18,730 nucleotides of DNA from a virus (lineage: Duplodnaviria; Heunggongvirae; Uroviricota; Caudoviricetes). Positions 1-16,459 of this stretch are shown here, piece by piece (the first letter of the stretch is position 1; each line of letters starts with the position of its first letter). Below the pieces are notes generated by a model. That model made no database searches. It saw nothing but the letters and a program-made list of their open reading frames with translations, and had not been told where the DNA came from. The stretch lies in the IMG/VR virus record IMGVR_UViG_2695420817_000007, one strand, 5' to 3'. Position numbers and translations under genes: made by a program.

Positions 1-104
1 CCCCGTCAGTAGCTGAACAGGAGGGACAGCTGATAGAAACAGAAGCCACTGGAGCACCTCAAAAACACCATCATACACTAAATCAGTAAGTTGGCAGCAT
101 CACC
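1..104 (-). mobile_element. IS1 insertion sequence, terminal 104 bp (terminal inverted repeat plus first codons of insA); rest of element lies beyond the window start
   Basis: Reverse complement of 1-104 reads GGTGATGCTGCCAACTTACTGATTTAGTGTATGATGGTGTTTTTGAGGTGCTCCAGTGGCTTCTGTTTCTATCAGCTGTCCC..., which matches the IS1 end as I recall it: 23-bp terminal inverted repeat at about 82-104, then the InsA start (GTG at about 49-47, MASVSISCPSC...). Recalled sequence, not searched. Confidence 0.8.
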
Positions 105-124
105 AAACTGTTGAGGTTTCTACT

Positions 125-1363
125 TTATAAAGAATTGCTACTTTCTAATTCTGGGTTTCTGGATCTATTTTTACAACCTAAATCCGAGTGGTAATTCGGT
201 ATATCGTTTGTCAAATCTTGTTTGATAGCATTAATTAAGATCATTATGTCGAATTTATGCATATCGTCGCCCCCTTCAGACCTTAGATGTTCGGATGTGG
301 TGAGTTGAGTCGCTAATTTGCTGTTTGGCCCCCACACAATATTATTTTCGAATTTTCCTTCATGCATTCTGTTATTATATATACAGTATTGTCTAATGTT
401 TAATGCACTGGCTAAATGTACAATGGCAGTATCTACAGTTATAACAAAATCAGCATGGCGAACCAATGCAAATGAACATCCGGCATCAGAAAATGGAGAT
501 AGAGACACATTATCCAATCCATTGTGATTAATCTGTTTTCCCATATTAAAAACTATTGTGTGATATCCCTTAAGGTTATTAAGGTAAGCTAGTACTTTGT
601 TTATCTGTTCATCAGATAAGGTTCTGCTATTCTGAGAGCCATAAGGGTTAAATATAACTAATTTTTTGTTTTTCTTCCTGAATTCATTTGCAACAATATT
701 TGCTGGTTCATATATTTTGTTGTCAAAATTAAGCGCTGCAGCATAATTATTATTTTTTATCTTTAGTAAAGATAAAACTTTTTTCATTCTTTCAGATGTG
801 TGAATGGAACGATTATCGATTATATTTGTATCAAAAATAGTTACGGCAGGATGATTAAAACAGATAGAGTGTTTAGGTCTAAGTAAATGTAGTGTTTGCA
901 ATCTGGTTATCGCTGTGTTATCAAAATTTGAGAAGTCAACAACAAGATCTACATTCAGTTTTTTTATCTTTGCTTTTAGTTCGTTAAATTTATTTTTCTC
1001 GTAAGATATAAAGGCATCCACGCCAACAATATCAGTAAAGAGGAATGATACTCTTGAAGGTGCTATCACATATACCACCATACCGGATTTTTGAAGTTGT
1101 TTAATAAACCCTGAGGTAACGATGCCGTCACCAATGGCTTGCATGTGCATGAAAATGCACACTGTTTTATAACTATCCGGCTGTAATGATGTTTTCCTTC
1201 TGTATCGCATTTTTAGAAATGCCAGTCTGGCCTTCGTCTTTATCTTTTTTGTTTTAATATTTCGCTGTCTGTTAAGCTGTTTTAATGATGAAATAACATT
1301 CATAATGGTACCCTGAAATTCCAAATCACACATGTCATCCGAAATGAGCAGGGTACTATACAA
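125..1363 (-). CDS. Glycosyltransferase family 9-like protein (ADP-heptose:LPS heptosyltransferase fold) with N- and C-terminal extensions; accessory cargo gene
   Basis: ORF of 412 aa, about 30% GC against about 55% in flanking phage genes. Shows the spaced GT9 pattern by eye: KTVCIFMHMQAIGDGIV (N-terminal strand plus GD motif), KKLVIFNPYGSQNSRTLSDEQ (second Rossmann half), FVITVDTAIVHLASAL (the xDSGxxHLAAAL-type motif). Track start is a TTG; in-frame ATGs at 1333 and 1303 are more plausible starts. About 60 C-terminal residues lie beyond the GT9 core. Confidence 0.6.
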   Translation of the reverse strand: MYSTLLISDDMCDLEFQGTIMNVISSLKQLNRQRNIKTKKIKTKARLAFLKMRYRRKTSLQPDSYKTVCIFMHMQAIGDGIVTSGFIKQLQKSGMVVYVIAPSRVSFLFTDIVGVDAFISYEKNKFNELKAKIKKLNVDLVVDFSNFDNTAITRLQTLHLLRPKHSICFNHPAVTIFDTNIIDNRSIHTSERMKKVLSLLKIKNNNYAAALNFDNKIYEPANIVANEFRKKNKKLVIFNPYGSQNSRTLSDEQINKVLAYLNNLKGYHTIVFNMGKQINHNGLDNVSLSPFSDAGCSFALVRHADFVITVDTAIVHLASALNIRQYCIYNNRMHEGKFENNIVWGPNSKLATQLTTSEHLRSEGGDDMHKFDIMILINAIKQDLTNDIPNYHSDLGCKNRSRNPELESSNSL

Positions 1364-1397
1364 AAAACTGGACTACAATGGTTTGAAATGAAAGCCT

Positions 1398-1997
1398 TTA
1401 TGCTTGTTTACTCCTTGATTCCACTGGGGAAGCTGGCCACTCAATATCCGGTGCTCTTGATGTATCAACACGGTTCAGCAGCACTCGATACTTCTTCCAG
1501 GCTTCCAGCAACGAGATTTCTTCCTCCGTTGCGATTTCCAGATCTACAGCATCCTGAAGTGGCGCAATATGCTCACTGGCTACCTGCATCAGGCTGTTTT
1601 TTGTTTCTTCTGCCTCCCGGATCCGGAACAGTTTTTCTGCTTCCGTATCCTTCACCCAGGCTGTGCCGTTCCACTTCTGATATTCCCCTTCCGGCGACGA
1701 CCAGGTAACATTTTCCGGTAACGGACCGAGTTCAGAAATAAATAACGCGTCGCCGGAAGCCACGTCATAAACCGTTTTACCACGATGATCTTCAACGAGA
1801 TGCCAAGACGCCCCATCACTGTTGAAAACAGCCACGAAGCCAGCTGGAATATCTGGCGGAGCAATATCAGTACTATTTGCAGGCAGACCTGTATGAGGTG
1901 GAATGTATGCATCATCTTCACCAATAAATTCATTGGTTCCGACCAGCAGATTATAAATTTTTATGGTTCGTGGTTGTTCACTCATTCTGAATGCCAT
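1398..1997 (-). CDS. G: Tail fibre assembly protein (P2 gpG-like chaperone)
   Basis: 199-aa ORF immediately downstream of the tail fibre gene with 1-nt junction; tail fibre assembly position and size. Confidence 0.8.
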
Positions 1998-4108
1998 TAT
2001 GCAAGCCTCACAATATAGTTAAATGCGATGTTTTTTACGGTGTTTTCCGCGTTGCCATAAGCGGCAATGGTAATGGTGTGTGTGTGCGAACCAATAGCGA
2101 GCGTATGTGTATGCGCACCTATTGCTACTGTGTGAGTATGAGCTCCTGCGCTTAATACGCGATTACTTGCTGCCTTGCTTGTGTTAGTTGCATGCATTCC
2201 ACCACCGGTACCGGGAGTTTCTGCGTATGCTGAAGTATTGTTGTAAGCAAAGTTGTGTGTATGTGCTCCGGTGTTATTTGTGGATTTAGTTCCGTAATCA
2301 AACGACGATGTGGTTTTCGTCCCCAAATCCGTACTGGATGCGCTGGCGCTGTGGGTGTGCGATTTAATGCCGTCCTGTTCCTGAGACAATACGGCCCGAC
2401 CACTGGCAGGTTTGCCCTTAATCGTCCAGCCACGCATATCAGGGATCACGCCTGACGGATAAGCGACTGCAAGTTTCGGGTAGGCAGATTTGTCAAAAGT
2501 CTGCCCCTGCATCAGGGCATAACCAGACGGAACGGTATCCGATGGCCACGGGATTGGTGCGCCAGGCGGATAAAACTGCTCTGATGGCGTATAGAGTGAA
2601 TAAACTGTACCGTCCGTTAACCCTTCCGGCTTATTAGCAGAATATGCTGGTGACGTATGAATCGTCACGCTGGCATTACTGGTATAATCCCATTGAATAT
2701 TTACACCAGTCGCATAATTTCCGATTGCAACGTAAATATCGTAAGTATCACCAGATGTATTGACCCAGGCAAAATTTGTAAACCCTGCCGATGTGCGCTG
2801 CCATAAAGCACCAGTAATCCCCTTCGGATTACCATTACCTGCACGCAAAACAATTTCAGATATACCTGCCTGTTGAGGTGAACCGACGTTATATCCAGCG
2901 CCACCAATCAACGTAATTGAAACAACAGAACTCGCCTGTGGCATGGTTACCGTTGCTAATTTGAACCAACCAGCACCACCTCTGAATGACATTGTTGTTG
3001 AGTTAAGCGTACCAATATCTTTCGGTGTCAGTGTTATATCCGCTGAAAGCGCCTTACCATTCACCTTACGGGCAGAAGGTACCCGACCATTCGCATTGTC
3101 ATTAGCTGCTTTCACTGCTTTCGGTGTCGCAGCAAGCGTTTCAGATGCGCTGTTAGTCGCGCTGCTTAGCTGGACAATTCCTTTTTGTGCTGTCGTAGCG
3201 TCCTGAGCGGTATATTTCCCGTTAGCAAGGTCATAGGCTGCCTTTACCGACTTTGGCGTTGCCGCCAGCGTTTCAGACGTGCTGTTGGTGGCGCTACTGA
3301 GCTGGACAAGGCCTTTCCGCGCTGTGGTGGCATCCTGCGCAGTATATTTCCCGTTAGCAAGGTCATATGCTGCCTTTACCGCCATTGGTGTTGCCGCCAG
3401 CGTTTCTGAATCGCTGTTGGTGGCGCTACTGAGCTGGACAAGTCCTTTCCGCGCTGTAGTGGCGTCCTGTGCGGTATATTTCCCGTTAGCAAGGTCATAG
3501 GCTGCCTTGACCGCTTTCGGCGTTGCGGCCAGTGCTTCAGACGTGCTGTTGGTGGCGCTACTGAGTTGAACAAAGCCTTTTGCAGTCAGCGAGGCGTCCG
3601 GGTGACGTCGTGACTGTTCATGCTCTTTCAGTTTGTCATCCACGTAATCCACTGTGGCCATCACCATGGTGTTATCCACGGTAAGCGCCACGGTGGCCGT
3701 GCTGGATACGGTCAGAATGGTGCGAAATGTTTGTGCACGTCCGGACCCTTCGGCAACGGTTGGTTTGTAACTTTCGGCAGTATTGCCCACCGCGATTAAA
3801 TCGCCGTGCTCATCAAATACACCAATTTCCCGGATCCAGAATCCGCCCGTTTCAGGAGGAATAACCAGCTCTGCAATAATGCGGTTCTGATGTGTTGCGT
3901 CCAGGATGACGCGATTAACAGTGTGTCGCCACACCTCATGCACAAGACGGGTCTGCTTACTGTCTGGCGAGGGCAACGTGCCGCCGCCGTCACCCACGGC
4001 CATGTGAGTCAGGCGGACCGGTTTACCATCTGGTGTGGCTGCCTGCGCTAATTTTTTTTCACCCGTATCGGTGATAACGGTTTTAAATTTTCGTGTTGTG
4101 GTACTCAT
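1997..4108 (-). CDS. H: Tail fibre protein (P2 gpH-like) with internal tandem repeats and His-rich C-terminal tip
   Basis: 703 aa. N-terminus (MAVGDGGG...HEVWRH...[10 protein letters not shown]...GGFWIRE...AESYKP...[18 protein letters not shown]) matches the conserved gpH N-terminal domain as I recall it. Central 44-aa tandem repeats and C-terminal HTH/HxH repeats are visible. Confidence 0.9.
3089..3595 (-). repeat. About 3.7 tandem copies of a 132-bp (44-aa) repeat inside the tail fibre gene
   Basis: Protein repeat KG(F/L/I)[37 protein letters not shown](R/Q) at aa 177-220, 221-264, 265-308, partial 309-340. The same periodicity shows on the plus strand as repeated antisense ORF peptides ([27 protein letters not shown]). 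Confidence 0.85.
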
Positions 4109-4110
4109 GC

Positions 4111-4641
4111 TTAATCGTCCGGATAAATGGTAATGACTTCACCGTCGTAAGTTGCTGCCGCCGCGAAAATATCCCCCGGAATTTCCTGAATGATATTCAG
4201 CCCTGTCATGTGGCGGCTGACCGGGCGGGCATCAGCAATCAACCGCTCCATTTCCAGATACATTTCCTCCGTCACGCCACTGTCCAGCGTGCCGACTTCA
4301 ACGGTAAATGTTCCCGGTTCTCCGCCGAACTCCCACCACTCAGACACGCGAATGAGGTATCCCAGCGGCTCAATGGCCCGGCGCAGTGCGCTGATGGTTC
4401 CTTTGTGTCGGTGTATCAGCCATGCATCACGAATCACCTGTCGCTTTGTCTCTTCCGGCCAGTTGCGATCCCAGCGGTCAACGGAAAATGCCCAGGCGAG
4501 ATAAGGCAGCAGATGCACCGGGCAGGTGTCCGGTGACCACAGCGTGTTGAGGTCTACCGGGATGTCTGTAATGCGCGCTCCGACAGCTTCGGCGCAACGC
4601 ATGAAATTGCTGGCTGATGGCGGTAACAGTGAATTACTCAT
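4111..4641 (-). CDS. I: Tail/baseplate protein I (P2 gpI-like)
   Basis: Track ORF 4111-4674; likely true start is the internal Met ([10 protein letters not shown]...) at 4641, giving 176 aa. Conserved [15 protein letters not shown] and [12 protein letters not shown] segments match gpI as recalled. Confidence 0.85.
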
Positions 4642-5530
4642 TACGCCCACCTTCGCTGATGGTGAATGACTCACAGCGCGCCGCCTGTATGTCGCTGATG
4701 GCCATATTCTGTGTGGGTTCGATTATCTCCACGCGTTGCACACCGTGCACATGCAGTGCGGCAGCAATGGCGGACAACGCCACGTCCTGACCGATAAGCC
4801 CCTGCTCAGCCAGCCACTTCCTGAACGACGATTCAGCTGCGGCCAGAATAGGTTCGGATTCCGGGCCGGGGTAAAAGTACAGTTTTGCATTCAGCCGCCA
4901 TGTCACGATTCTGGCGCTCTGTACCGTCAGGCGGTCGGCCACCGGGCGGGTATCCTCTGCATTCAGAACGGCGCGAACGGTATTAAGCAACGCCTCCGTT
5001 GCTGTGCCGTCGCCTTCAGTGGACAGGATGGAAACCGTCACATTGGCCGGAGACGGACTGATAGCCCGCGCATCACGCACCAGACCGCTGGCGCTGCGGG
5101 CAAAATACTCGTATGCACCTGACGGGCCAGCAACACTCAGGCCGTCGTACGCCCGCTGCGCCCGCAGTCTAAGCGAGGTGTCGCTCTCCATCACCGCGTC
5201 GGTGGTATCCGTTGCCGGAGTGATAACCAGGCGCTTTGTGTTCATATTGCCCGCGAGGTTGTCCAGGTCTGTCCCGGCGCTGTGGCTTAACATGCAGGCG
5301 CGTGCACCCTCATTGACCCGCTGGCGTAACAGCATTTCACGAAACGCTGTTGTCTGGGCGATAACGTTAAGGGGTTCCGATTCCAGCTCCAGCGCGGCGG
5401 AAACGGCTTCACGCTGTTCGGCGGGATAGGACGCAATCATCATGGCTTTTGTGTCAGCCAGAATTGCTTCAAAGTCAGGCTCCGCGATGATGGCGGGTTC
5501 CGGTAACTGGGAAAGGTCAACGGCGGGCAT
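4634..5530 (-). CDS. J: Baseplate assembly protein J (P2 gpJ-like)
   Basis: 298 aa; MPAVDLSQLPEP start, RVTVQSA and HVHGVQRVE segments match gpJ; correct position between W and I. Confidence 0.9.
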   Translation of the reverse strand: MPAVDLSQLPEPAIIAEPDFEAILADTKAMMIASYPAEQREAVSAALELESEPLNVIAQTTAFREMLLRQRVNEGARACMLSHSAGTDLDNLAGNMNTKRLVITPATDTTDAVMESDTSLRLRAQRAYDGLSVAGPSGAYEYFARSASGLVRDARAISPSPANVTVSILSTEGDGTATEALLNTVRAVLNAEDTRPVADRLTVQSARIVTWRLNAKLYFYPGPESEPILAAAESSFRKWLAEQGLIGQDVALSAIAAALHVHGVQRVEIIEPTQNMAISDIQAARCESFTISEGGRNE

Positions 5531-5533
5531 GAT

Positions 5534-5884
5534 TTACTCCCTCAGCGTGATGGTTAATTCAACATTCTGCATGGTCTGCATGACAGTGCCCGACAGCGTC
5601 ACCCCGGCGCGGCCTCCTGCCTTCCAGACAACGTCGATGGCGTCCAGGGCAATGCGGGGTTCCCATCGTGTCAGTGCAATCACGGCAGCACTCATGCATT
5701 GCAGACGCGTGGTGTTATTCATGGGTTCGTCAATCAAATCAGGCAAAAGGCTGCCATATTCCCGTCGCATAACCCGGCTTGCCAGCGGGGTGGTCAGGAT
5801 GTCCCTGACTGACTGTTTCAGGTGCTCCATATCGTTCAGGTTTCCCGTCCCGTCCGGGTTCATTCCTGTGTAGCGGGTTGTCAC
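5534..5884 (-). CDS. W: Baseplate protein W (GPW/gp25 family)
   Basis: 116 aa; size and position between V and J; lysozyme-like gp25 family pattern. Confidence 0.85.
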   Translation of the reverse strand: MTTRYTGMNPDGTGNLNDMEHLKQSVRDILTTPLASRVMRREYGSLLPDLIDEPMNNTTRLQCMSAAVIALTRWEPRIALDAIDVVWKAGGRAGVTLSGTVMQTMQNVELTITLRE

Positions 5885-6462
5885 TGCGGGCCTCCTGTCG
5901 AATCGCTGCCACCTTTAACGCCACCGTGCTTATGTGTATGCACTGTGATGCCGTTTGAGGTGAAATTGCCGCCGCTGTGCGTGATATTGCCGCTCATCTT
6001 TCCCCCTTTTGTGACGTCAAGCGTCGCCGTTCTCAGAAGGTTTGTGCATTCCACGACGGGCGTGTCCAGTGTCACGCTGACGGATGCCTGCAGGCTGGCT
6101 GTTTTCATGCCGCTGGCGCTCAGTGCGCCTGCGTCCGCGTCGTAGCGGAACACCGCGCCATCCGGCGCGCTGACCACGATTTCTTTCAGGCTTTTGCCGG
6201 GGGCCGGACTGGCATCACTCCACAGGCTGCCAATTATCATGGCGGTTTCCGGGTTGCCGCCGATGCAGGCAATGACCACCTGTTCGCCGGGTGATGGCGG
6301 CAGCCACACATTGAAGGCTCCCGCGCGCGTGGTGTTCCAGCGTAACCAGCCTGTTTCCAGTTCGCCGCTGCGAACGCGCACGCACCAGGACTTCTCATCA
6401 ACTTCAGAGATGATCCCGGTGCGGATGACATTGCTCAGCAGTCGCATGAGTTCTGCGCTCAC
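5881..6462 (-). CDS. V: Baseplate assembly protein V (spike)
   Basis: 193 aa; gpV-like N-terminus (IRTGIISEVD...) and Gly-rich C-terminus; 4-nt overlap with W. Confidence 0.85.
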   Translation of the reverse strand: MSAELMRLLSNVIRTGIISEVDEKSWCVRVRSGELETGWLRWNTTRAGAFNVWLPPSPGEQVVIACIGGNPETAMIIGSLWSDASPAPGKSLKEIVVSAPDGAVFRYDADAGALSASGMKTASLQASVSVTLDTPVVECTNLLRTATLDVTKGGKMSGNITHSGGNFTSNGITVHTHKHGGVKGGSDSTGGPQ

Positions 6463-7103
6463 CGTACAGCCTCCGCAATCCGGCCCAGCACCGTGTTATA
6501 AATCAGGCGCTCATCTGCCTGGCTGATACCCAGCAGCTCACGTACCGGGTAATCGGTGAAAATGCCCGGCGCAACCTGATCGCGCTCACCGAACTGATGA
6601 ACGCGTGCAATACGTGCGGCCACGCCGCTGTAACCCACCGTCACACCGGAAGCATCTGCACGGGTTTTCAGGTAGCGGGCGGTGCGCAGTTTTACGAACA
6701 TGGGGACGCGCCTGGTGCTGTCCTGGTTGATGCGCCGGGTGCGTATTTCCAGAAAACGGTCGATGTCATCCCGGTAAAACGTGCGGATATTGTTTTTATC
6801 CTCATCCCACCCGGTAATGGTTCGCCCGTATTTCCCCGTGTCGTGATGCCAGTTTTTCAGCGTGCGTGCTTCGTTATTCCAGATAAAGCGAATGCGTTCC
6901 TGTATCCGGGTTACGCGGCGTCTGCGTGGTGTCCACGCGGTCCCGTCCGGCGCTTTCTGTGACCGGATACGCGCCTGCTGGGCGCGGCGTAAATCCTGTG
7001 CCAGCTTTCTGGCGATGTTATTGATGGCCTGCTGATTCAGGCTGTCGCGGATGGCCTCAAAGGTTTCATCCACGCGGGTGAATGCCTTATCCATCGCTTT
7101 CAC
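6459..7103 (-). CDS. S: Virion morphogenesis / tail completion protein (P2 gpS-like)
   Basis: 214 aa in the S position between R and V; basic Arg-rich protein typical of this family; longer than P2 gpS. Confidence 0.7.
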   Translation of the reverse strand: MKAMDKAFTRVDETFEAIRDSLNQQAINNIARKLAQDLRRAQQARIRSQKAPDGTAWTPRRRRVTRIQERIRFIWNNEARTLKNWHHDTGKYGRTITGWDEDKNNIRTFYRDDIDRFLEIRTRRINQDSTRRVPMFVKLRTARYLKTRADASGVTVGYSGVAARIARVHQFGERDQVAPGIFTDYPVRELLGISQADERLIYNTVLGRIAEAVR

Positions 7104-7554
7104 CCCACGTCACATCCTGGAATACATGCGACCAGTCGCCTTCGGAAGAGGGCAGACGGGGTTTTGGCTCCGGCAGGTGTTCTGCCTGCGGTGTGCCCTG
7201 ACTGTTGCGCGTGATGCGAACGCGTTCCCGCAGGGGGAGCGTAAACAGGAGGTCGGCGCTGTCATCGTCATTGATAACGGCGGAGAATTTGATGTCCTGA
7301 TTACGCTCAGGGTTGAGCAGCAACTGTGGCTGATTTTCGGATAACCACGCCAGCAGCGGCAGCGTGAGGTCATCCAGCTCCCCGGCGTAATCCATGACAA
7401 ACATCACCATCTGATAGCGGTAAACAAACGAGGGCGTTTCTCCGGTCGTTTCAATGTTGCCGCTCTCCACGAAAATGGTGAATTTTTCCGGGTTGGCCTG
7501 ACACCATCGGCATGAACGGGTCATGGCTTCACGCAGGGAATCAGTTTTCAGCAT
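7087..7554 (-). CDS. R: Tail completion protein R (P2 gpR-like)
   Basis: 155 aa, same length as P2 gpR; N-terminus MLKTDSLREA...NPEKFTIFVESGNIE resembles gpR (MLKPDSLRRA...). Confidence 0.85.
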   Translation of the reverse strand: MLKTDSLREAMTRSCRWCQANPEKFTIFVESGNIETTGETPSFVYRYQMVMFVMDYAGELDDLTLPLLAWLSENQPQLLLNPERNQDIKFSAVINDDDSADLLFTLPLRERVRITRNSQGTPQAEHLPEPKPRLPSSEGDWSHVFQDVTWGESDG

Positions 7555-7831
7555 GGTTGTTGTCCTCGTTGTTCAGTCGTTGCAGCCTGCGCTGTTCCAG
7601 TAATTCAATGGCCCGTTTATCCGCGTTACAGGTTTCCAGTGCATCCAGAAGGCGGTCGCCCCATATACCGAGATTTCCCCATGTGGGAGTGTCAGGGAAG
7701 GGGGGAGGCGTTACCGGTATGGTCAGCGTCTGCGGTATAAGCCGGACTGACGGCGCTGGCCGTGGCGCGTTCTGCGTGCCTGCGCAACCTGTCAGTAAAA
7801 CGAGCGTCAGGCAAAGCGTGGGCGCATTCAT
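7541..7831 (-). CDS. lysC: Rz1-like outer-membrane lipoprotein spanin (LysC-like), out of frame over the 3' end of lysB and running into the R start
   Basis: Signal peptide with lipobox MNAPTLCLTLVLLTGC followed by a Pro-rich segment; track ORF 7541-7861, start taken at the second Met (7831). Confidence 0.7.
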   Translation of the reverse strand: MNAPTLCLTLVLLTGCAGTQNAPRPAPSVRLIPQTLTIPVTPPPFPDTPTWGNLGIWGDRLLDALETCNADKRAIELLEQRRLQRLNNEDNNHAEN

Positions 7832-8099
7832 CTTTTGCAATATCGTTGCGTAGCTGTTCACGTCTGGCCTCTCCGTCCTGATTGCGTTGCTGATTTTCCG
7901 CGCGGAGTTGTGCCAGCACCTGCTGCATATCCTGTACCCCGGCGCTGATGATATTCAGGGTGTCGACGGTACTTTTCAGGGTGCTGGCCTGCGCTTCGTT
8001 TCTGGCGTTCTCCCGGCCCAGTGACCACGACAGACGCATGGATGCTCCCCAGGCGGCAATCAGAAGAAAAGCGACGCCCAGCGTGGGCCAGAGCTTCAT
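7692..8099 (-). CDS. lysB: Rz-like inner-membrane spanin (LysB-like)
   Basis: Track ORF 7692-8243 has an implausible extension overlapping the endolysin gene. The internal Met at 8099 (MKLWPTLGVAFLLIAAWGASM...) gives an N-terminal transmembrane helix then a coiled-coil-like segment (QQVLAQLRAENQQRNQ). Its ATG overlaps the endolysin stop (ATGA). Confidence 0.75.
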   Translation of the reverse strand: MKLWPTLGVAFLLIAAWGASMRLSWSLGRENARNEAQASTLKSTVDTLNIISAGVQDMQQVLAQLRAENQQRNQDGEARREQLRNDIAKDECAHALPDARFTDRLRRHAERATASAVSPAYTADADHTGNASPLP

Positions 8100-8488
8100 G
8101 CCGGATAAACTCCGTGCGGTAACTGAAAATGCGGTCCGTCTTTCAGGGTCTTCCAGTCGCCGCCCCATTCCACCGGAATATTCAGTTCCCGGCTGGCCTG
8201 TCTGAATGCTGCTGCGATTTTTTCGTACAGCGGCCATTCCCATGACACCTGGCTGCCGACATAAGCCACAACATCCACGGCATGCCCCGTAAGGTGGCGG
8301 CTGTTCATGGTCTGGCTCTTACCCGTGGCCACAAGTTGCTTCTGGCGGTAACGGCTGCGCAACCCTTCGGTGATACCAAAATCCACTTCCGAAATTTCCA
8401 GTGCCCGTCGGGTCACTTTCACCAGCTCAGGATTTACGCCCTGCAAATTCTTTTCGCTCCGGCTGCTGAATTTAAATGTGTTGCTCAT
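8096..8488 (-). CDS. Endolysin, peptidase M15 family (L-alanyl-D-glutamate / D-Ala-D-Ala peptidase type)
   Basis: 130 aa; contains the zinc-binding signature SRHLTGHAVD (SxHxxGxAxD); sits between holin and spanins. Confidence 0.85.
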   Translation of the reverse strand: MSNTFKFSSRSEKNLQGVNPELVKVTRRALEISEVDFGITEGLRSRYRQKQLVATGKSQTMNSRHLTGHAVDVVAYVGSQVSWEWPLYEKIAAAFRQASRELNIPVEWGGDWKTLKDGPHFQLPHGVYPA

Positions 8489-8808
8489 TCGTCCTTCTCC
8501 TTCACCCTGCGATTAAAGGCCGCAATAACCTTGTCGCGTGCTTTCTCTGCCCCCATAAAACCGATTGATGCGCCGATAAACGTCACGGCATCTTCAGGAA
8601 AACCGAAGAAGCGCAACGACCCGGCCACGGCCATGGCGAGAACGCCGCACGCCAGCGATCCCGTTACGGTCTGAACCAGTGTTCGTCCGTCATAAAGACT
8701 CATCAGCGCGGAAATGCTGACCGCCGCGCCTGCTGCATACACCGTTGGCAGGTGGTCAAAGAGCCATGCAATAACCTGCTCTGTGATCCCTGTTTGAATG
8801 GTGTTCAC
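8485..8808 (-). CDS. Holin (putative), GTG start
   Basis: Track ORF 8485-9027 has a long improbable N-terminal extension overlapping gene X. A GTG at about 8808, preceded by GGGGGAG, gives a 107-aa membrane protein with hydrophobic segments (VYAAGAAVSISALMSLY, GSLACGVLAMAVAGSL) and a charged C-tail, directly upstream of the endolysin. Confidence 0.65.
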   Translation of the reverse strand: MNTIQTGITEQVIAWLFDHLPTVYAAGAAVSISALMSLYDGRTLVQTVTGSLACGVLAMAVAGSLRFFGFPEDAVTFIGASIGFMGAEKARDKVIAAFNRRVKEKDE

Positions 8809-8810
8809 TG

Positions 8811-9011
8811 CTACTCCCCCCACAACTGAATCATTTCTCGTTTCTTCTTCTCCGGCTCCGGCATCTCCACGTCCTGCCCGGCGTCCAGAAATACCTGCTG
8901 ACAGAGTCCGGGGTTGGCATCCAGCACCTTTTCGGTGACGCCCTGCGTCGTGCCGTAGTACCGGAAACAGAGCGAATCCACGGTGTCGCCTTCCAGTGCC
9001 TTCACTTTCAT
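8811..9011 (-). CDS. X: Tail protein X (P2 gpX-like)
   Basis: 66 aa from the internal Met MKVKALEGDTVDSLCFRYYGTTQGVTEKVLDANPGL..., closely resembling P2 gpX (MKTFALQGDTLDAICVRYYGRTEGVVETVLAANPGL). Confidence 0.85.
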   Translation of the reverse strand: MKVKALEGDTVDSLCFRYYGTTQGVTEKVLDANPGLCQQVFLDAGQDVEMPEPEKKKREMIQLWGE

Positions 9012-9514
9012 CAGCACAACTCCGCAAAGATTCGCGGGCGGCACAGAATGTCAGAGATGGCCCAGCTCACATCGCGCCACAAATCTGATGTCTGTATATC
9101 CAGTGCGTCCGCCCGGCGGTCGCCCTTGTCCGTTGTGTCCGCATCGCGGTAACGCTCCAGAATCAGGGCGCGTGTGGCGGTATAAACAGCATTGCGCCAG
9201 TGCCAGAGATTGACGCTTTCTCCGTTAATTACGGGTGCCGGAACATCGGCCAGCGTCTGATGGCCAGCCGCCTGCTGTTCCTGCTGCCATGCTTCCAGCT
9301 CGCGGGTAACGTGAGCCACCGCCCCGGTGGCGGTATGCAGCAGGCGGGAGGTGGTCACACGGCCCGGCAGTCGTACCGCCAGACGCAGCTCACGCAGCAC
9401 AATATCCGGCCAGAATGCGCCCGCTGAAATACGGGTATCACCATCATCGGTATCGGTGATGTCGTCCTCTGCGGGTCCGGGGTTGGTTCTGGCAACCATA
9501 CTCATGGGGTTCAC
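9011..9514 (-). CDS. L: Head completion/stabilisation protein L
   Basis: 167 aa in the L position between M and X; acidic N-terminus and family-typical length. Confidence 0.8.
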   Translation of the reverse strand: MNPMSMVARTNPGPAEDDITDTDDGDTRISAGAFWPDIVLRELRLAVRLPGRVTTSRLLHTATGAVAHVTRELEAWQQEQQAAGHQTLADVPAPVINGESVNLWHWRNAVYTATRALILERYRDADTTDKGDRRADALDIQTSDLWRDVSWAISDILCRPRIFAELC

Positions 9515-9528
9515 TCCTGAAAAAAATC

Positions 9529-9600
9529 GGGCGGTGGGTGCGCGGTGTAAACGGTCACGGAGTCAAACCGGAACACCGCGCACGCCGCCCGCTGACGGGG
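9529..9600 (-). terminator. Long imperfect hairpin followed by a T-run on the minus strand, between M and L (terminator or attenuator candidate)
   Basis: Arms at about 9537-9557 (cgggcggtgggtgcgcggtgt) and 9582-9600 (acaccgcgcacgccgcccg) are near-complementary. On the minus strand the stem is followed by ATTTTTTTC and then the L ribosome-binding site (GGAGTG) and ATG. Confidence 0.4.
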
Positions 9601-9607
9601 TCAGTCG

Positions 9608-10408
9608 TTAACCGCGCTTCGCCTTCTGCGTCGCGGTGGTTTTTCGTGTTGCAGGCTTCCGCGTTGTCTTTTTACTTTTGCTGCTTTCGTCCTGCGCCTG
9701 CTGTGCGCTGGCGTCTTCTGGTGCGGCTGCGGAATCGGCTTTTTTCAGGGCGCGGGAAAGGGTTGCAATCTCGCGTTTCACACCTGCGTTCGGGTTCAGG
9801 TGCATTGCTTCGCGCAGCAGCTTCAGTGACAGTGCCATGCTGTCCGCATCGCTCAGGCCACGGCGGGCAAAGGCGCACGCCTTGCATAATTTGGCGCGCA
9901 CTTCGTCCGGCATGTCCTGGTCGGTGACAATCTCCCGGAGGGTATCCAGTGGTTCGATAAAGGCGGACAAATCCGCGTCGGCATCCGTCCCGGCCTGCGT
10001 CAGTACCGGGTTGCAGATTTCTTCGGTCAGCACTGTGGCAGCAGTACGGCCAAAGTTATCCGGCATAATGAGGTTATGACGGACCACATACGCACCAATA
10101 CGCAACGCCAGCGGAAGATCGCCGCAGTCAATCGCCCACACCATCAGCGTGGCAATCACTTCATCCTGCTGCCCGCCGTCAGCCTCCAGCGTTCCCTCAA
10201 TCCAGCCGGAAAAATCCGGCAACAACTCTTTTTTGATGGCGGCTTTCGCGCTTCTGGCCTGTACGCCCTTAAGCCGGGCCTGTGCCAGACGCAGACGATA
10301 CAGCACCTCTTCATGCGCGGTACGCGCGGCGTGGTCCACGCCTTCATTCGCCCGGCCTGCGCGCTGTGCCATCACGTTCTGCCAGTGTTGCTGTGCAGGA
10401 GTAATCAT
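9608..10408 (-). CDS. M: Terminase endonuclease (small) subunit M
   Basis: 266 aa; position between N and L; size and N-terminus (MITPAQQHWQNV...) consistent with P2 gpM. Confidence 0.85.
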   Translation of the reverse strand: MITPAQQHWQNVMAQRAGRANEGVDHAARTAHEEVLYRLRLAQARLKGVQARSAKAAIKKELLPDFSGWIEGTLEADGGQQDEVIATLMVWAIDCGDLPLALRIGAYVVRHNLIMPDNFGRTAATVLTEEICNPVLTQAGTDADADLSAFIEPLDTLREIVTDQDMPDEVRAKLCKACAFARRGLSDADSMALSLKLLREAMHLNPNAGVKREIATLSRALKKADSAAAPEDASAQQAQDESSKSKKTTRKPATRKTTATQKAKRG

Positions 10409-10425
10409 TGTTTCTCTCCGTTACA

Positions 10426-10444
10426 GGCGGGCATGATGCCCGCC
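10426..10444. other. Short GC-rich palindrome between N stop and M start
   Basis: ggcgggc-atgat-gcccgcc; no T-run on either strand, so not a canonical terminator. Confidence 0.3.
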
Positions 10445-10453
10445 GTGAGTTGA

Positions 10454-11506
10454 TTAGCTGTCGGCGAACTTCAGGCCAGTGACCATCGCGCACTTGCCAT
10501 AGTCTTCAACGACATAAGCGTCATTGATGGACTGGTAGGTGGCGATGCGGTTGTATTCCGGCTCGTCTTTCATCAGGCGACGCATTGAACCTTTCTGCCA
10601 GTAAATCGACAGGTTGTTGAACGAGGTGATCAGCATCGTTGCATCCGGGAAGAACGGCGCAAGGAACACACCCAGCCCGCCAATGGTGCGCGATGACAGG
10701 ATGAGCTGCCCGGCGAGTAATTCCGCATTGGGATTCTGGCCGCTGATGCTGTTCAGCACGGGCAGACGCAGCGAGTTAAACAGGTTGCGCCCCATAATCA
10801 CCACGAGGTCGTCAGCTTCCTTGTGCCATTCATCCAGCAGGGATGAGCGTGCGTCCTGAACCAGTGCATCAGCATTCGCATACTTACCCGCGTGCGCCAC
10901 GGTGTTGTCCATGTTGCGGGAGGTCAGCGTCACGTCATTCATTACGCGCGCGCTGGCATTGGTTCTGATGTGCTCCAGCCACCCCACGTTAACGTCCTGA
11001 AGCAGCTTGTTGGTGCTGAAGTTGGATTTTTCCGCGTGTGACGTGCCGTTAAAGCCGATCATGATGCGGTCAAGCGCCACCTGTCGGGCAATCTGTGCGC
11101 TGATGCGGGTCTGGAAGTCATTGTGCGCCGCCCAGGCATCAAGCTGCGGATACGAAATAAACGTGTCGTAGTTCACCTGCTCACACTGGTACTGACGGGA
11201 CTTCAGGTCGACAGCGTTAATCGGGTTGCGGCGATCTGTGCCGTCATAACTGGTATTTGTGCGCGCAATCGGCCCGGTGGTGTCCATGAGGACTTTTTCG
11301 CCTTTCTGGTCGGTCACACCGATCACGTTAATTTTTTTTGTAAGTTCGGTGCTATCCTTTGAGGCGTTTTCAAAACGCTGCTGCACCGCGGGTTCCACGG
11401 TAAATCGCGATACCAGTCCAGAAACCGGGATATTGTTAATCGACGCCTGTCGCGTCATGTAGCAGCCCAGCTTGTTACGGGCATTATCTGACATCACCAG
11501 ATTCAT
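10454..11506 (-). CDS. N: Major capsid protein N (P2 family)
   Basis: 350 aa; size and position after scaffold O. Confidence 0.9.
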   Translation of the reverse strand: MNLVMSDNARNKLGCYMTRQASINNIPVSGLVSRFTVEPAVQQRFENASKDSTELTKKINVIGVTDQKGEKVLMDTTGPIARTNTSYDGTDRRNPINAVDLKSRQYQCEQVNYDTFISYPQLDAWAAHNDFQTRISAQIARQVALDRIMIGFNGTSHAEKSNFSTNKLLQDVNVGWLEHIRTNASARVMNDVTLTSRNMDNTVAHAGKYANADALVQDARSSLLDEWHKEADDLVVIMGRNLFNSLRLPVLNSISGQNPNAELLAGQLILSSRTIGGLGVFLAPFFPDATMLITSFNNLSIYWQKGSMRRLMKDEPEYNRIATYQSINDAYVVEDYGKCAMVTGLKFADS

Positions 11507-11529
11507 AAAAAATTTGCTCCTTTGTCTTA

Positions 11530-12366
11530 TCAGAAGTCAGCCAGCTGGTCGGAGGCTGCGCCCGTTGCGGTGAACCGGTTCTGCGGATCGCCGTCCTGCG
11601 TGCGCAGTTTTTCCTTCAGTGCTGTCAGCTCTGTGGTCAGCGAAGTGATTTTCTGGCTGTCCTGCTGATGGTGGGTTTCCAGTGCATTAAAACGGTCGAT
11701 AATGTCGGCCTGTGATGTTGCGACACCTTCCACCGCTTCCTGAATACGGGAGAAACTGGCGTCATCCGCTTTGCGGCCACGGCCAATAATCCCCATAACG
11801 CGGTTAAACCACTGGGTGCCTTCTTCCTGACGTTGTTCGGTGAGTTCGATAAGTTCTGACTCCATAGCGGCGGTAAACATCGCCACGTCTCCCTGCTGAC
11901 AGTTGAATGTCATCAGTTGCATACGTTGTTGTGCCGCAAAGGCCAGACGTTCCGTGCCCAGGCTGGCGGGGGTGTCGGTCATTGCCAGCCCGCGCAGGTA
12001 AGGGCCTCCCGTGATGGTTGACTGTGGTTCCAGCTCAATACTGGAGTAAATTTTTTTACCATCGTTAAGCAGGGACATCATGCGAGCGGTCGGCTCAATT
12101 TCGGCATACAGTGCCGTGCGGCCTGCCAGCGGGCCATCGGTTATGTCTTCGGTGCTCAACCCCACAACATCGCCCATAGCGGAAAACTCGCTGCCGGGGA
12201 GTGGTGACAGGATGTGCTCAATATTCACACGTGCACCATAAACGGACGGGTTATAACTGGTGGCGGCAGCTTTCAGCATGTCGCCGTTGATTTCGCGCCC
12301 GTCTGCCGTCACACCGGAGACAGCCACGCGAAACTTTTTGCGGGATGTCTTTTTTTCATTAGTCAT
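11530..12366 (-). CDS. O: Capsid scaffolding protein O
   Basis: Track ORF 11530-12399. The second ATG (12366) is preceded by GAGGGG at good spacing; the first ATG has no ribosome-binding site. N-terminus FRVAVSGVTADGREINGDMLKAAATSYNPSVYGARVNIEHI resembles gpO (FRIGVEGDTCDGRVISAQDIQEMAETFDPRVYGCRINLEH). Confidence 0.9.
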   Translation of the reverse strand: MTNEKKTSRKKFRVAVSGVTADGREINGDMLKAAATSYNPSVYGARVNIEHILSPLPGSEFSAMGDVVGLSTEDITDGPLAGRTALYAEIEPTARMMSLLNDGKKIYSSIELEPQSTITGGPYLRGLAMTDTPASLGTERLAFAAQQRMQLMTFNCQQGDVAMFTAAMESELIELTEQRQEEGTQWFNRVMGIIGRGRKADDASFSRIQEAVEGVATSQADIIDRFNALETHHQQDSQKITSLTTELTALKEKLRTQDGDPQNRFTATGAASDQLADF

Positions 12367-12399
12367 AGTTTTTGCCCCTCTGACTGGTTCTTCAGTCAT

Positions 12400-12520
12400 G
12401 ATGGCAAAGCGTAACAGGCTGATACAAAGGGCTTTTGTTGTAAGAAAACGGCCAGAACAGGGGGTTAAGGAGAACGGTTTCGCGCGCGGGTAATCTTCCT
12501 GTAATTACTCAGGGGGAGCA
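12400..12520. promoter_or_regulatory. Divergent intergenic region between O and P; expected site of the divergent late promoters
   Basis: 121-bp gap between divergent operons, with GGGGGAG ahead of the P ATG. I could not identify a convincing TGT-N12-ACA activator site by eye. Confidence 0.35.
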
Positions 12521-14272
12521 ATGATTCAGGACGCTTTTGTGCGCCAGCGTGCGCGGCAACTTTACTGGCAGGGTTATCCGCCCGCAGAAATATCACGTCT
12601 GATGGGAATAAACCCGAACACGATTTATGCGTGGAAAAAACGCGACCAGTGGGATGAAACACCACCCGTGCAGCGTGTCACGCAGTCCATCGATGCGCGC
12701 CTCATCCAGCTTACTGAAAAACAGAATAAAACAGGTGGTGACTTCAAGGAAATAGACCTGCTGACCCGGCAGCTTAAAAAACTGCATGATGGCCAGCCGG
12801 ATGCGACGGCCACAGGAAAGAAAAGCCGGGCGAAAAAACTCAAAAATCATTTCACGCCGGAACAGATTGCCGCACTGCGGGAAAAAATCATCAGCAGGCT
12901 GGAGTGGCATCAGCGGGGCTGGTTTGACTCTCTGACCCTTTGCAGGGAAGCCGGGATACGTAACAGGATGATCCTGAAATCCCGACAGATTGGAGCGACA
13001 TGGTATTTTGCACAGGAAGCACTGCTGATGGCGCTGCGTGACGATGTGGCGCAACCTTACCAGCGTAACCAGATTTTTTTGTCTGCGTCGCGTCGTCAGG
13101 CGTTCCAGTTTAAAAGCATTATTCAGAAGGCTGCATCTGAAGTTGATGTGGAGCTGAAAGGGGGCGATAAAATCATCCTCTCCAACGGCGCAGAGCTGCA
13201 TTTTCTTGGTACTTCTGCTGCGACGGCACAGTCCTACACGGGCAATTTTTATTTTGATGAATTTTTCTGGGTCAGTCGCTTTGCTGAACTGCGCAAGGTG
13301 GCTGGCGCTATGGCAACCCTCAGCGGACTGCGGCGCACCTACTTCTCCACGCCATCCACCGAAACGCACGAGGCATACGCCTACTGGAACGGCGACCGCT
13401 GGAACGAGAAAAAGGCCACGCATAAACGCCAGCGTTTTTCTGTTGACTGGAAAACGCTGCATAACGGGCTTATCTGCCCTGACCGGACGTGGCGGCAAAT
13501 TGTCACGCTGGAAGATGTGGTTAATCACGGCTGGAAACACACCGATATCGACGAAATTCGTGATGAAAACACCGAAGACGAGTTCCTCAATCTCTATATG
13601 TGTGAGTTTGTCCGCGAAGGGGAATCGGCATTTAACCTGAATATCCTGATTGGCTGCGGTGTTGACGGATACGACGACTGGAAAGACTGGAAACCTTTTG
13701 CTCCCCGCCCGATGGGGAATCGTCCGGTATGGATTGGGTATGACGCAAACGGCAGCAGTGGCAACGGCGACAGCGGCGCTGTGTCCGTGGTGGTTCCTCC
13801 GGCTGTTCCTGGTGGCCGTTTTCGAACGGTGGAGACGCGACGCGTTCAGGGGCTGGAGTTTGAAGAACAGGCCAGAGTCATTGAAGAGTTCACGTGTCGC
13901 TACAACGTGGAACACATCGGCATTGATGTGACGGGCGGGAACGGGGAGGCTGTTTATCAGATAGTGAAGCGGTTTTTCCCTGCTGCTATTCCGTACACCT
14001 TCACGCTGTCATCCAAACGGTCGCTGGTACTGAAAATGCTGCAAATAATGCGTGCCGGACGGTGGGAATACGATCGCGCCGAACGCGAGCTGGTCGCGGC
14101 CTTTAACGCCGTGCGTAAGGTGAAAACACCGGGCGGCTTTATCACTTACGAAACGGACCGCGCGAGGGGGATCAGCCACGGCGACCTTGCGTGGGCAACC
14201 ATGCTTGCTGTCATTAACGAACCAATTGGCGGCGAAGGAGAAAACGAGCGTTTCACGGTTATGGAGTTCTGA
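12521..14272 (+). CDS. P: Terminase ATPase (large) subunit P
   Basis: 583 aa; Walker A-like KSRQIGATWYF; size and position match P2 gpP. Confidence 0.9.
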   Translation: MIQDAFVRQRARQLYWQGYPPAEISRLMGINPNTIYAWKKRDQWDETPPVQRVTQSIDARLIQLTEKQNKTGGDFKEIDLLTRQLKKLHDGQPDATATGKKSRAKKLKNHFTPEQIAALREKIISRLEWHQRGWFDSLTLCREAGIRNRMILKSRQIGATWYFAQEALLMALRDDVAQPYQRNQIFLSASRRQAFQFKSIIQKAASEVDVELKGGDKIILSNGAELHFLGTSAATAQSYTGNFYFDEFFWVSRFAELRKVAGAMATLSGLRRTYFSTPSTETHEAYAYWNGDRWNEKKATHKRQRFSVDWKTLHNGLICPDRTWRQIVTLEDVVNHGWKHTDIDEIRDENTEDEFLNLYMCEFVREGESAFNLNILIGCGVDGYDDWKDWKPFAPRPMGNRPVWIGYDANGSSGNGDSGAVSVVVPPAVPGGRFRTVETRRVQGLEFEEQARVIEEFTCRYNVEHIGIDVTGGNGEAVYQIVKRFFPAAIPYTFTLSSKRSLVLKMLQIMRAGRWEYDRAERELVAAFNAVRKVKTPGGFITYETDRARGISHGDLAWATMLAVINEPIGGEGENERFTVMEF

Positions 14273-15318
14273 TGAGCAGAAAAAATAAAAAAGTGCGCAT
14301 GAGTTCACGCATTGATCTCGCTGATGCGCTCAGGAAAGAATCATCGCTCAGTGCATTCACATTTGATGGTCCTTATCGCCTGACCGGGCATGACCTGCTG
14401 GACAATATGTACTGTGCTGATAACGGGCGGTGGTATGAAACCCCGGTGGACTGGTACGGTCTGGCAAGAGCCGCCCGGCAAACGTCCTGGCATCAGTCTG
14501 CGCTTTACTTTAAGCGCAATGTATTGCTCGGTTGCTACATCCCGCACCCGCTGCTTTCCCGGCAGGATTTCTCGGCGCTGGCGCTGGACTGGTTTGTGTT
14601 CGGTAACGCATTCCTTGAGCTTCGGAGTAATATGCTCGGCGAACCACTTAAATTACGGCACGCACTGGCGAAATACGTGCGACGCGGAAGCGATCTTGAA
14701 TCATGGTGGTATGTGCAGGATGGCAAGGACGCGTTTCAGTTTCGCCCTGGCAAAGTGTGCCACCTGATGAATCCGGACATTAACCAGGAAATTTACGGCA
14801 TGCCGGAATATCTTGGCGCATTACTCTCGGCCAGCCTGTCTCATTCGGCGGACATGTTCAGAAAACTGTATTACGACAACGGATCCCACGCCGGGTGCAT
14901 CATCTACATCGGTGCAGCGCAGGTAAACCGCGAAAGCATGGACTCCCTGAAAGAAACGCTACAGGGGGCACGTGGTGGTGGTGCGTTTAAAAACGTGCTC
15001 ATTCATGCGCCCAACGGGGGCAAAGAGGGGGTGCAAATTTTGCCGTTCCAGCAGATCACCGCAAAGGATGAGTTCATGAATGTTAAGGCGGCATCCCGTG
15101 ATGATGTGCTGGCTGCGCACCGCGTTCCGCCGCAACTGATGGGGGCGATGCCGGGCGAAAAAAGTGCGTTTGGTGATGTGGAGAAGGCCGCGCGGGTTTA
15201 CGCAATTAACGAGCTGATGCCCGTCATGGAGGCCATGAAGCACATCAATGACTGGCTTGGCGAAGAGGTGATCCGCTTTAACCCTTACGCACTGTTAGAT
15301 ACCCAGCCCACATCCTGA
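14272..15318 (+). CDS. Q: Portal protein Q
   Basis: 348 aa; start overlaps the P stop (TGATG); size and position match P2 gpQ. Confidence 0.9.
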   Translation: MSRKNKKVRMSSRIDLADALRKESSLSAFTFDGPYRLTGHDLLDNMYCADNGRWYETPVDWYGLARAARQTSWHQSALYFKRNVLLGCYIPHPLLSRQDFSALALDWFVFGNAFLELRSNMLGEPLKLRHALAKYVRRGSDLESWWYVQDGKDAFQFRPGKVCHLMNPDINQEIYGMPEYLGALLSASLSHSADMFRKLYYDNGSHAGCIIYIGAAQVNRESMDSLKETLQGARGGGAFKNVLIHAPNGGKEGVQILPFQQITAKDEFMNVKAASRDDVLAAHRVPPQLMGAMPGEKSAFGDVEKAARVYAINELMPVMEAMKHINDWLGEEVIRFNPYALLDTQPTS

Positions 15319-15343
15319 CGCGCTTCGCTTGTCTGCTGCTTCG

Positions 15344-15369
15344 CCGGGGCATAAAAAATTTATGCCCCG
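15344..15369. other. Perfect 11-bp inverted repeat hairpin just downstream of Q
   Basis: cggggcataaa-aaaa-tttatgccccg; no adjacent T-run. Possible operon-end structure or packaging-region element. Confidence 0.4.
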
Positions 15370-15772
15370 ACTCTCCAGCTCCTGTATCAGTCAGATAATT
15401 TCACGACGCTTTCCTGCTTATTGCCATCATCGACGGTCAGATTCTTACGCAATCCCACTGCGCTGACTGCATGTTCTCGCCGCCTCAGTGCGATTTTGAC
15501 GGCCTTACCTTTCACCCCATCAAACCAGAATCCCTCACGTATTTTTCACGCTCAGCGTGAGAAATACGGCCATTCTGTTGTATCTCTGCGACATCGTTCA
15601 GGGAATGCTATTTACCCCCTGAAACGCGGGCTGTTCCCCCGTCACCTGCGCGCAGAAAAAACGCGTTTTTTTGTGCACGTACGGATCCTTGACGGATCCA
15701 GCCACCACGCGGGCCGGAAGTACAAAAAGTCGTTCAAAAAAATTGTGCAAACTTGTGCACTATCGTGCAAAC
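15370..15772. other. Non-coding, palindrome- and repeat-rich region in the position of the cos/packaging site
   Basis: No credible ORF. Contains a 15-bp palindrome tcacgctcagcgtga (about 15546-15560), a duplicated acggatcc (about 15681-15699), and four TGTGCA-type motifs (about 15670-15772). The exact P2/186 19-nt cos sequence as I recall it is not present. Confidence 0.35.
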
Positions 15773-15795
15773 AAAAAAAGCGCCTTATCGGCGCT
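15773..15795 (-). terminator. Rho-independent terminator for the minus-strand 89-aa gene
   Basis: agcgcc-ttatc-ggcgct stem-loop preceded on the plus strand by aaaaaaa (a T7 run after the hairpin on the minus strand), 10 bp downstream of the ORF stop at 15805. Confidence 0.65.
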
Positions 15796-15804
15796 TCAAA
15801 AGTA

Positions 15805-16074
15805 TCAATTGTTGCTGTGTATTAATCGCCAACCACGAACATATGCTTCATAGGCATCTCTGTGCCTTACAGTTCCAGCCTGGCTAAACGGAATGTTAGC
15901 TAAAACTAAATCATTCTGAGCCATAGCGCGTCCTTCAAGCGCATCTTTTATGCCTAGCTCAAAAGCACAGGCAGCGCATTTGTGCCGACCTTCTTGTCCT
16001 TGATATTCAGGGAGAGACAGAAATGTTGGATTATAACGATGAGGGTTCTTGCAAATACCTGTTTTAGCCCGCAC
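15805..16074 (-). CDS. Hypothetical protein, 89 aa, accessory gene
   Basis: GTG start with GAGGT ribosome-binding site 7 nt upstream; dedicated terminator downstream; GC about 45%, lower than the phage backbone. No family recognised by eye. Confidence 0.45.
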   Translation of the reverse strand: MRAKTGICKNPHRYNPTFLSLPEYQGQEGRHKCAACAFELGIKDALEGRAMAQNDLVLANIPFSQAGTVRHRDAYEAYVRGWRLIHSNN

Positions 16075-16095
16075 TTTATTTACCTCATAGGAAAA

Positions 16096-16237
16096 ATATG
16101 CGTGCCTTTACAGAGGTGCGTGTAAGCAATAAAATATACGACGCACATTTTGATTTACTTCGGAAGGCACGCATATCAGGTTAAGTGAGTCCGACCGAGT
16201 TTTACGCCCCAATAGTTGCTGCTATTGGGGCGTTTTG
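16096..16237 (+). ncRNA. Candidate structured small RNA or leader: long stem-loop plus intrinsic terminator
   Basis: 13-bp inverted repeat atatgcgtgcctt / aaggcacgcatat (about 16096-16108 and 16164-16176) enclosing an inner gtgcgt/acgcac stem, then a canonical terminator cgccccaatag-ttgctg-ctattggggcg + TTTTG (about 16205-16237). A 28-codon ORF (16098-16184) with an AGGA site is embedded, so a small peptide gene is not excluded. Confidence 0.4.
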
Positions 16238-16455: not shown

Positions 16456-16459
16456 GCTT

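Follow-up and report, generated by a model that had tools for sequence, protein, structure and literature searches.

The left edge of the window (the whole stretch of 18,730 nucleotides analyzed here) is formed by the end of an IS1 element, and this element is probably a recombinant joint at which the 3' flank of a prophage cargo gene has been fused, by way of an inversion of about 1.7 Mb, to the spacer between cydA and the TPR gene and sucD of an E. coli chromosome. The window itself is a short-read contig that is broken in repeats at both of its ends. The evidence comes from the IS1 end and the prophage beside it, from a sister contig that reads through the IS1, and from the positions and directions of the two joined loci in related chromosomes.

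The IS1 end and the prophage beside it

An earlier note made from the bare DNA had claimed an exact IS1 terminus with the start of insA, 20 bp from the end of an accessory gene, and these claims hold in every detail. The reverse complement of window 1-104 is IS1 nucleotides 1-104, reading GGTGATGCTGCCAACTTACTGATTTAGTGTATGATGGTGTTTTTGAGGTGCTCCAGTGGCTTCTG..., and these 104 nt match at 100% identity an IS1A-family copy annotated in CP080085 as well as the 768-bp IS1 that contig CYEA01000009.1 carries. The left terminal repeat is exact at 104..82, where it is the only match to GGTGATGCTGCCAACTTACTGAT in the window (0.00 are expected in shuffled sequence). After the insA GTG at 49-47 the codons VASVSISCPSCSATDG follow, and then the left window edge is reached. 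There is only one IS1 end within the window; the stop codon of the cargo ORF is at 125-127 on the minus strand, which leaves 20 bp (105-124) between it and the IS1 tip. The observation itself is thus correct throughout, and nothing in it departs from known IS1 or prophage biology. Of the 5,426 complete E. coli genomes searched, about 5,000 contain matches to IS1, and none has the window's joint between IS1 and the cargo gene. The features of the window are as follows.

1-104, minus strand: left end of IS1 (IS1 nt 1-104), the contig stopping inside the repeat; from identity to IS1 copies and the continuation in the sister contig
82-104, minus strand: left terminal inverted repeat of IS1 (IRL), 23 bp, GGTGATGCTGCCAACTTACTGAT; exact pattern match
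1-49, minus strand: first 16 codons of insA, GTG at 49-47; from the full InsA translation in the sister contig
97-70, minus strand: insA promoter-like site; promoter scan
105-124, no strand: 20-bp remnant of the 97-bp spacer between the convergent gpU and cargo stop codons, with the joint at 104/105; alignment with IS-free relatives
105-18600, no strand: P88-like (Xuanwuvirus) prophage fragment with the 3' part of A, ParM/StbB, Q, P, O to G and the cargo gene
125-1303, minus strand: cargo gene, family-9 glycosyltransferase-like (GT9), 392 aa, 33% GC; Pfam PF01075, E=4e-6
1398-1997, minus strand: tail fibre assembly gene (G-like); Pfam matches Caudo_TAP, Phage_tail_fib and Collar, given for the G/H pair
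1997-4108, minus strand: tail fibre gene (H-like); the same Pfam matches, given for the pair
17812-18651, minus strand: ORF with the C-terminal part of A; IS100 joint at 18600/18601
18601-18730, no strand: the last 130 bp of IS100 (IS21 family) at its istB-proximal end; replication gene A is interrupted here

The prophage fragment lacks FI to U, D, ogr, the 5' part of A, and int. It is 96-97% identical to complete prophages at pdxB/flk, and window 105-11997 is 99.97% identical to IS-free prophages; since the nearest of these are only 3-4 substitutions away in 11.9 kb, the IS1 joint must be recent. The G-like and H-like genes lie upstream of the cargo gene and run in the same direction; past them come the baseplate, lysis and head genes, which are of P2 type; P and Q follow on the other strand, and after these ParM/StbB and the 3' part of A. 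Within the tail fibre gene, at 3098-3580, there are internal repeats about 132 bp apart that are 83-87% identical to one another, consistent with Phage_fiber_2 repeat domains.

Gene order was checked in complete prophages (M9 and 94-3024), strains 165 and STEC409, 15 draft contexts and phage P88; the draft contexts came from look-ups of G, H and GT9, which gave 5, 1 and 10 places, respectively, with STEC409 recurring among them. In all of the relatives checked the FI-FII-E-E'-T-U operon is encoded on the other strand and runs convergently toward the cargo and fibre genes, and in all IS-free GT9 prophages examined a spacer of 97 bp and 37.5% GC separates the gpU and GT9 stops. Gene D of the relatives is a full ORF divergent from FI, and their tail module has 92-98% DNA identity to Xuanwuvirus (P88-like) phages; P2-type head, baseplate and fibre genes combined with an inverted FI-U operon that converges on G/H place the prophage among the P88-like phages. 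We considered whether the orientation of the tail operon is a defect of the relatives and rejected this, as P88 and the other Xuanwuvirus records have the same order with a full D gene. The earlier note had expected a sheath operon behind the cargo gene, as P2 gene order would have it, and had proposed that IS1 may have severed it from its late promoter. Neither part of that proposal stands: the operon is convergent, in the relatives as in P88, and the insertion site is between two 3' ends that are 97 bp apart, so that no late promoter is cut off.

Promoter activity directed outward from the IS1 had also been suggested. Because the IS1 tip points at the 3' end of the cargo gene, a transcript leaving the IS1 there would be antisense, and the promoter scan found no promoter-like site that spans the IS1/prophage joint; we therefore rejected an outward hybrid promoter. 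Judging from the orientations, transcription of GT9 would run into IS1 in the insA direction.

Two observations on related phages concern the same region. In P88 (L005 8251-10955) the site between U and G is occupied by an invertase and an invertible fibre and fibre-assembly cassette; given this cassette in P88 and GT9 in the window lineage, the U/G site is a variable locus in Xuanwuvirus. Many GT9 prophages (L002 10007-10981; L032, L033, L036 and L037) carry a deletion that fuses the major capsid gene N to tail gene I, whereas nothing is missing from their fibre genes, GT9 or tail operon.

The right boundary of the fragment is also an insertion sequence. Homology to gene A stops at 18600, and 18601-18730 matches, at 99.2% identity, the end of a 1954-bp IS100 carried by phage 520873. 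An istB annotation lies under database matches to the window's right end. The truncated A' product was found by exact-protein look-up on seven public contigs, six of which are 10-20 kb, and the joint between A' and IS100 is absent from the 5,426 complete E. coli genomes searched. Both ends of the fragment are thus IS joints unique to this clone. The earlier note had allowed that the prophage could be defective, and to judge from its sequence it is so whichever model of the left joint holds, because gene A is cut by IS100 at 18600/18601 and FI-U, D, ogr and int are absent in cis, none being contiguous with the fragment.

Between A and Q the window carries, at 15805-17735 on the minus strand, a ParM/StbB-type partition pair and an 89-aa ORF. 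The ORF has no family match, and none of the three proteins has a PADLOC match; the exact ParM protein occurs in 2,301 blocks of public assemblies. Two Xuanwuvirus records, phage 520873 (L038 2433-4386) and phage 503458, each carry a 1954-bp IS100, which in 520873 lies inside the tail sheath gene and is flanked by a 6-bp duplication. These two records are probably defective prophages and not viable phages.

Read-through of the IS1 in a sister contig

Contig CYBO01000046.1 (18,730 bp) agrees with the window at every comparable position. A contig that crosses the IS1 was reached by exact-protein look-up of the window's tail fibre protein, whose exact sequence is rare because of clone-specific substitutions at window positions 2656 and 2666. 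This contig, CYEA01000009.1 (L012; 189,552 bp), shows no difference from the window in the 14,108 nt that can be compared, and it supplies the other IS1 end that the earlier note had proposed to look for. Its IS1 occupies 14005-14772, is 768 bp long and contains both terminal repeats and no Ns; the right repeat (IRR), GGTAATGACTCCAACTTACTGAT, the partner of the IRL, lies at its far end (14750-14772). It encodes the full 91-aa InsA, has the A6C -1 frameshift motif TTAAAAAACTC, and gives a 232-aa InsAB' product with Zn_ribbon_InsA, HTH_Tnp_IS1 and DDE_Tnp_IS1 domains. The terminal repeats, the 768-bp length and insA/insB' with the A6C frameshift, all seen in the sister contig (the window holds only 104 bp), identify the element as IS1, and this copy is apparently complete and functional.

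The DNA on its two sides does not have the form left by a simple transposition. The immediate flanks in CYEA01000009.1 are CAACAGTTT on the cargo side and AGAAAACAC on the far side (at greater length, ...CCTCAACAGTTT and AGAAAACACTGG...), so that the 9-bp target duplication that the earlier note had also proposed to look for is absent. The IS1 inserted into gene G of strain STEC409 served as a positive control: a 9-bp duplication, TGAATATTG, flanks it on both sides. Lack of a duplication argues against a primary insertion at this place, not against the element being an IS1, and it is explained by the two flanks coming from different loci. On the far side the flank is chromosomal and not phage DNA: it matches E. 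coli chromosomes with 99.9% identity, at a position 817 bp upstream of cydA. Next come a frameshifted TPR gene and then sucD, sucC, sucB and sucA, and from the cydA-sucD spacer onward the contig continues as 170 kb of collinear chromosome. None of the 5,426 complete E. coli genomes has an IS1 at this chromosomal point. The chromosomal far flank and the missing duplication together support the idea, raised in the earlier note, that the IS1 marks an IS-mediated rearrangement.

Of the seven assemblies of the clone, one bridges the 768-bp repeat and six are interrupted at it; what connects the IS1 to the sucD side is thus a single draft contig, which could be mis-scaffolded. The cluster representative of the truncated 248-aa TPR protein is 99% identical to it and comes from a 7.8-kb Logan contig that stops before the IS1 site. 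A literature search on the clone's assembly accessions found nothing.

If the bridging contig were a scaffolding error, the IS1 could be a simple insertion with the tail genes directly behind it. Such an insertion would show a 9-bp duplication of AAACTGTTG and ...CCTGATAAAACTGTTG fused to the IS1 right end; stated as flanks of that end, AGAAAACACTGG is the recombinant joint and CAACAGTTTATCAGG the alternative candidate joint. The proposal has some appeal, since STEC409 has an IS1 with a 9-bp duplication in gene G in the same region, the repeat is unresolved in six of the seven assemblies, and gpU is 97 bp from the cargo stop in all IS-free relatives. We nevertheless consider it unlikely, as the sole contig to read through is identical to the window over its 14,108 shared nt, contains a clean 768-bp IS1, shows no duplication and continues into 170 kb of chromosome. 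Even if it were true, the IS1 would be between two 3' ends, and no promoter would have been cut from the operon.

The earlier note had also named a vector contaminant as a possible source of the match. Fragments of IS1 occur in Tn9-derived vectors, and this is the only point in favor of contamination or of a chimeric assembly artefact. The IS1 tip adjoins natural prophage sequence that is 99.97% identical to E. coli prophages, seven assemblies share the structure, one of them with a full-length IS1; the natural context and the recurrence refute a vector origin, and we give an artefact of either kind virtually no credence.

A predicted inversion around the terminus

In complete genomes the GT9-bearing prophages lie between pdxB and flk, and in these relatives the direction from A to GT9 is that of increasing K-12 coordinates, at about 2.438 Mb. 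The suc genes past the IS1 run in decreasing K-12 coordinates from about 0.77 Mb. The two segments therefore meet head to head, as read from the one bridging contig and the relatives' att site, and a head-to-head joint is of the inversion type. In K-12, dif is at 1,590,750, which would give the proposed inversion arms of about 0.82 and 0.85-0.87 Mb, nearly symmetric about it. A deletion with an endpoint at pdxB/flk would remove about 1.7 Mb including the terminus, which counts against it. Some P88-like prophages use a site at pheA, and an origin there would imply a deletion topology of about 2 Mb, which is not viable.

We propose that IS1 would first have entered the AT-rich 97-bp gpU-GT9 spacer of a P88-like prophage at pdxB/flk. 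Recombination between this copy and an oppositely oriented IS1 upstream of cydA would then have inverted a segment of about 1.7 Mb, roughly centered on dif; alternatively, a one-step intramolecular transposition into the site upstream of cydA could have produced the same inversion. Either route would leave the head, baseplate, fibre and cargo half of the prophage adjoining sucD, and would be predicted to place the sheath, tube, tape-measure and U operon, D and ogr beside cydA behind a second IS1. The predicted joints are GT9-CAACAGTTT-IS1-AGAAAACAC-TPR-sucD and, reciprocally, cydA side-AGAAAACAC-IS1-CAACAGTTTATCAGGACC-gpU.

We infer the clone's original att site, the inversion, the reciprocal joint and any functional consequences; the int/att end of the prophage is absent from the clone's contig, and the integration site is taken from relatives. 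One degenerate pattern for the observed and reciprocal junctions, which does match the window itself, had no match in viral_contigs, genome_contigs or metagenome_contigs, three collections from which the clone is absent. Among the matches listed in the exact-protein look-ups of GT9 and ParM, which were only the longest contigs, all were IS-free.

In an IS-rich genome, a joint like that of a single inversion could also arise through rearrangements in several steps. Another IS1-mediated event, such as deletion of the tail half, translocation of the 18.5-kb IS1/IS100 fragment or successive recombinations, would have left the tail genes lost or at an unpredictable place, and we regard such an event as possible, if distinctly less likely than not to be the answer. 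It would be in keeping with a fragment whose two ends are IS joints found in this clone alone, with an att site known only from relatives, and with CP080085 (below), where repeated IS1 events have pared a prophage to a 1.5-kb remnant of the order IS1-GT9-G'-IS1, again without duplications. Against it, direct deletion from either known att site would cost 1.6-2 Mb including the terminus, and the head-to-head orientation and the nearly equal arms around dif are those that a single inversion predicts. The single inversion is the reading that we prefer, and the chromosome of the clone probably carries a large IS1-mediated inversion.

The cargo gene and comparison with known systems

The cargo protein (RefSeq WP_001100987) has weak similarity to RfaQ/heptosyltransferase I, and its gene, at 33% GC, differs from the remainder of the window (54.5%). 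Exact copies of the 392-aa protein are encoded in 1,944 blocks of public assemblies and in 49 of the 5,426 complete E. coli genomes, and the gene is present in none of 50,697 phage records. As a candidate for a known defence gene it was rejected, as it has no PADLOC match. On the strength of its weak RfaQ/WaaC-like similarity GT9 may modify the LPS core. The LPS core is the receptor of P2-type phages, and GT9 could serve lysogenic conversion or exclusion.

The 1.65-kb cargo region around the invariant and widespread GT9 gene has been hit by IS1 at least four times independently: once at the joint of the window clone, twice in CP080085, and once in STEC409, as a simple insertion into gene G. 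The coordinates that go with these hits are as follows.

Window 104/105: the clone's joint
Window 1538/1539 and 1580/1581: IS1 hit sites
L001 6104/6105 and 7644/7645: IS1 hit sites
L004, about 9436-10211: IS1 hit site

In CP080085 (strain 19SZHZ869Rt; L001 5337-8412) GT9 and a 3' stub of G lie between two inverted IS1 copies in a remnant of about 1.5 kb, with both IRLs pointing inward. The remnant lies a long way from the pdxB/flk att site, with truncated ynbA and ydbA on its two sides, and its outer flanks, GCAGAATTG and CACTTTACC, show no target duplication. The unit has the form of a composite transposon, but it looks like the debris of deletion or recombination; this lineage keeps little beyond the IS1-bounded GT9 at the remnant locus.

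Cargo capture had been among the earlier suggestions, and CP080085, with its inward-facing IRLs around GT9 and the G stub, is what speaks for IS1 copies bracketing GT9 as a Tn9-like composite transposon. The clone has one IS1 only, and the next mobile-element end is that of IS100, some 17-18.5 kb off and beyond the head genes; the CP080085 unit itself sits between truncated ynbA and ydbA without a target duplication. With a single IS1 end and IS100 as the other boundary, capture finds no support in the clone, and we judge it highly improbable.

A bolder reading is that the pair of IS1 copies marks an inversion of about 1.7 Mb, roughly centered on dif, that put the prophage halves on opposite sides of the terminus, and that this, together with the four or more IS1 hits and the IS1-bounded GT9 of CP080085, could reflect selection in which the glycosyltransferase is kept and the phage disabled. 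We think this unlikely; if true, it would be a case of IS-driven domestication of a prophage-borne lysogenic-conversion gene, an LPS-core-type glycosyltransferase.

What the window contains is a canonical IS1 at a recombinant joint in a decaying P88-like prophage, which is an already known phenomenon, and the structure is the one expected in IS-rich E. coli at the places where short-read contigs end. These findings leave knowledge of IS1 and of prophage decay unchanged. They do carry two cautions: a contig end at an IS tip beside a prophage gene is not the same as a simple insertion, and the P2 gene order should not be presumed for every P2-like prophage. For the strain, they mean that the 18.5-kb block is a dead prophage remnant with an intact low-GC glycosyltransferase gene.

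Among known systems, the element itself is of the IS1 family (IS1A-type, E. coli/Shigella), with which it shares the 768-bp length, the 23-bp imperfect terminal repeats, the A6C frameshift and the DDE transposase. Over the 768 positions there are 25 differences between the read-through copy and the IS1A copies of CP080085, and, unlike the usual IS1 insertion, the read-through copy has no 9-bp target duplication. Inversions of megabase size between IS1 copies, reaching across the terminus, have been documented in E. coli, and a close parallel to the proposed rearrangement is the 1.49-Mb inversion between IS1 copies (634,745-2,128,599) in population Ara-1 of the E. coli long-term evolution experiment (PMC4173774); there, too, IS1 acts between distant loci, over about 1.5-1.7 Mb, and the inverted segment spans the terminus. 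Unlike the Ara-1 case, one endpoint here is inside a prophage, which would be split in two, and the Ara-1 inversion has been mapped whereas that of the window clone is deduced from one joint. A Tn9-type composite resembles the window in having IS1 beside a passenger gene, and CP080085 has two IS1 copies around GT9; the window differs from it in having no second IS1, and neither the window clone nor CP080085 has a target duplication.

P2 has its Z/fun ('TO') cargo locus downstream of gene G. The window lineage likewise carries low-GC cargo directly downstream of the tail fibre assembly gene, but in P2 the operon that follows (FI...) has the same direction, and its promoter is on the side of the cargo, whereas in the window lineage the neighbor is the 3' end of gpU. 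The window's second variable locus, which holds ParM/StbB between A and Q, corresponds to the gpA-gpQ hotspot that has been described in P2-like phages (PMC9122126). The nearest match in gene order is Escherichia phage P88 and its genus Xuanwuvirus (Peduoviridae), in which D on the minus strand is followed by FI, FII, E, E', T and U on the plus strand, converging on the variable site, G and H on the minus strand; in P88 the variable site holds a DNA invertase and alternative fibre genes, in the window lineage it holds GT9, and the window copy, unlike P88, is broken by IS1 and IS100.
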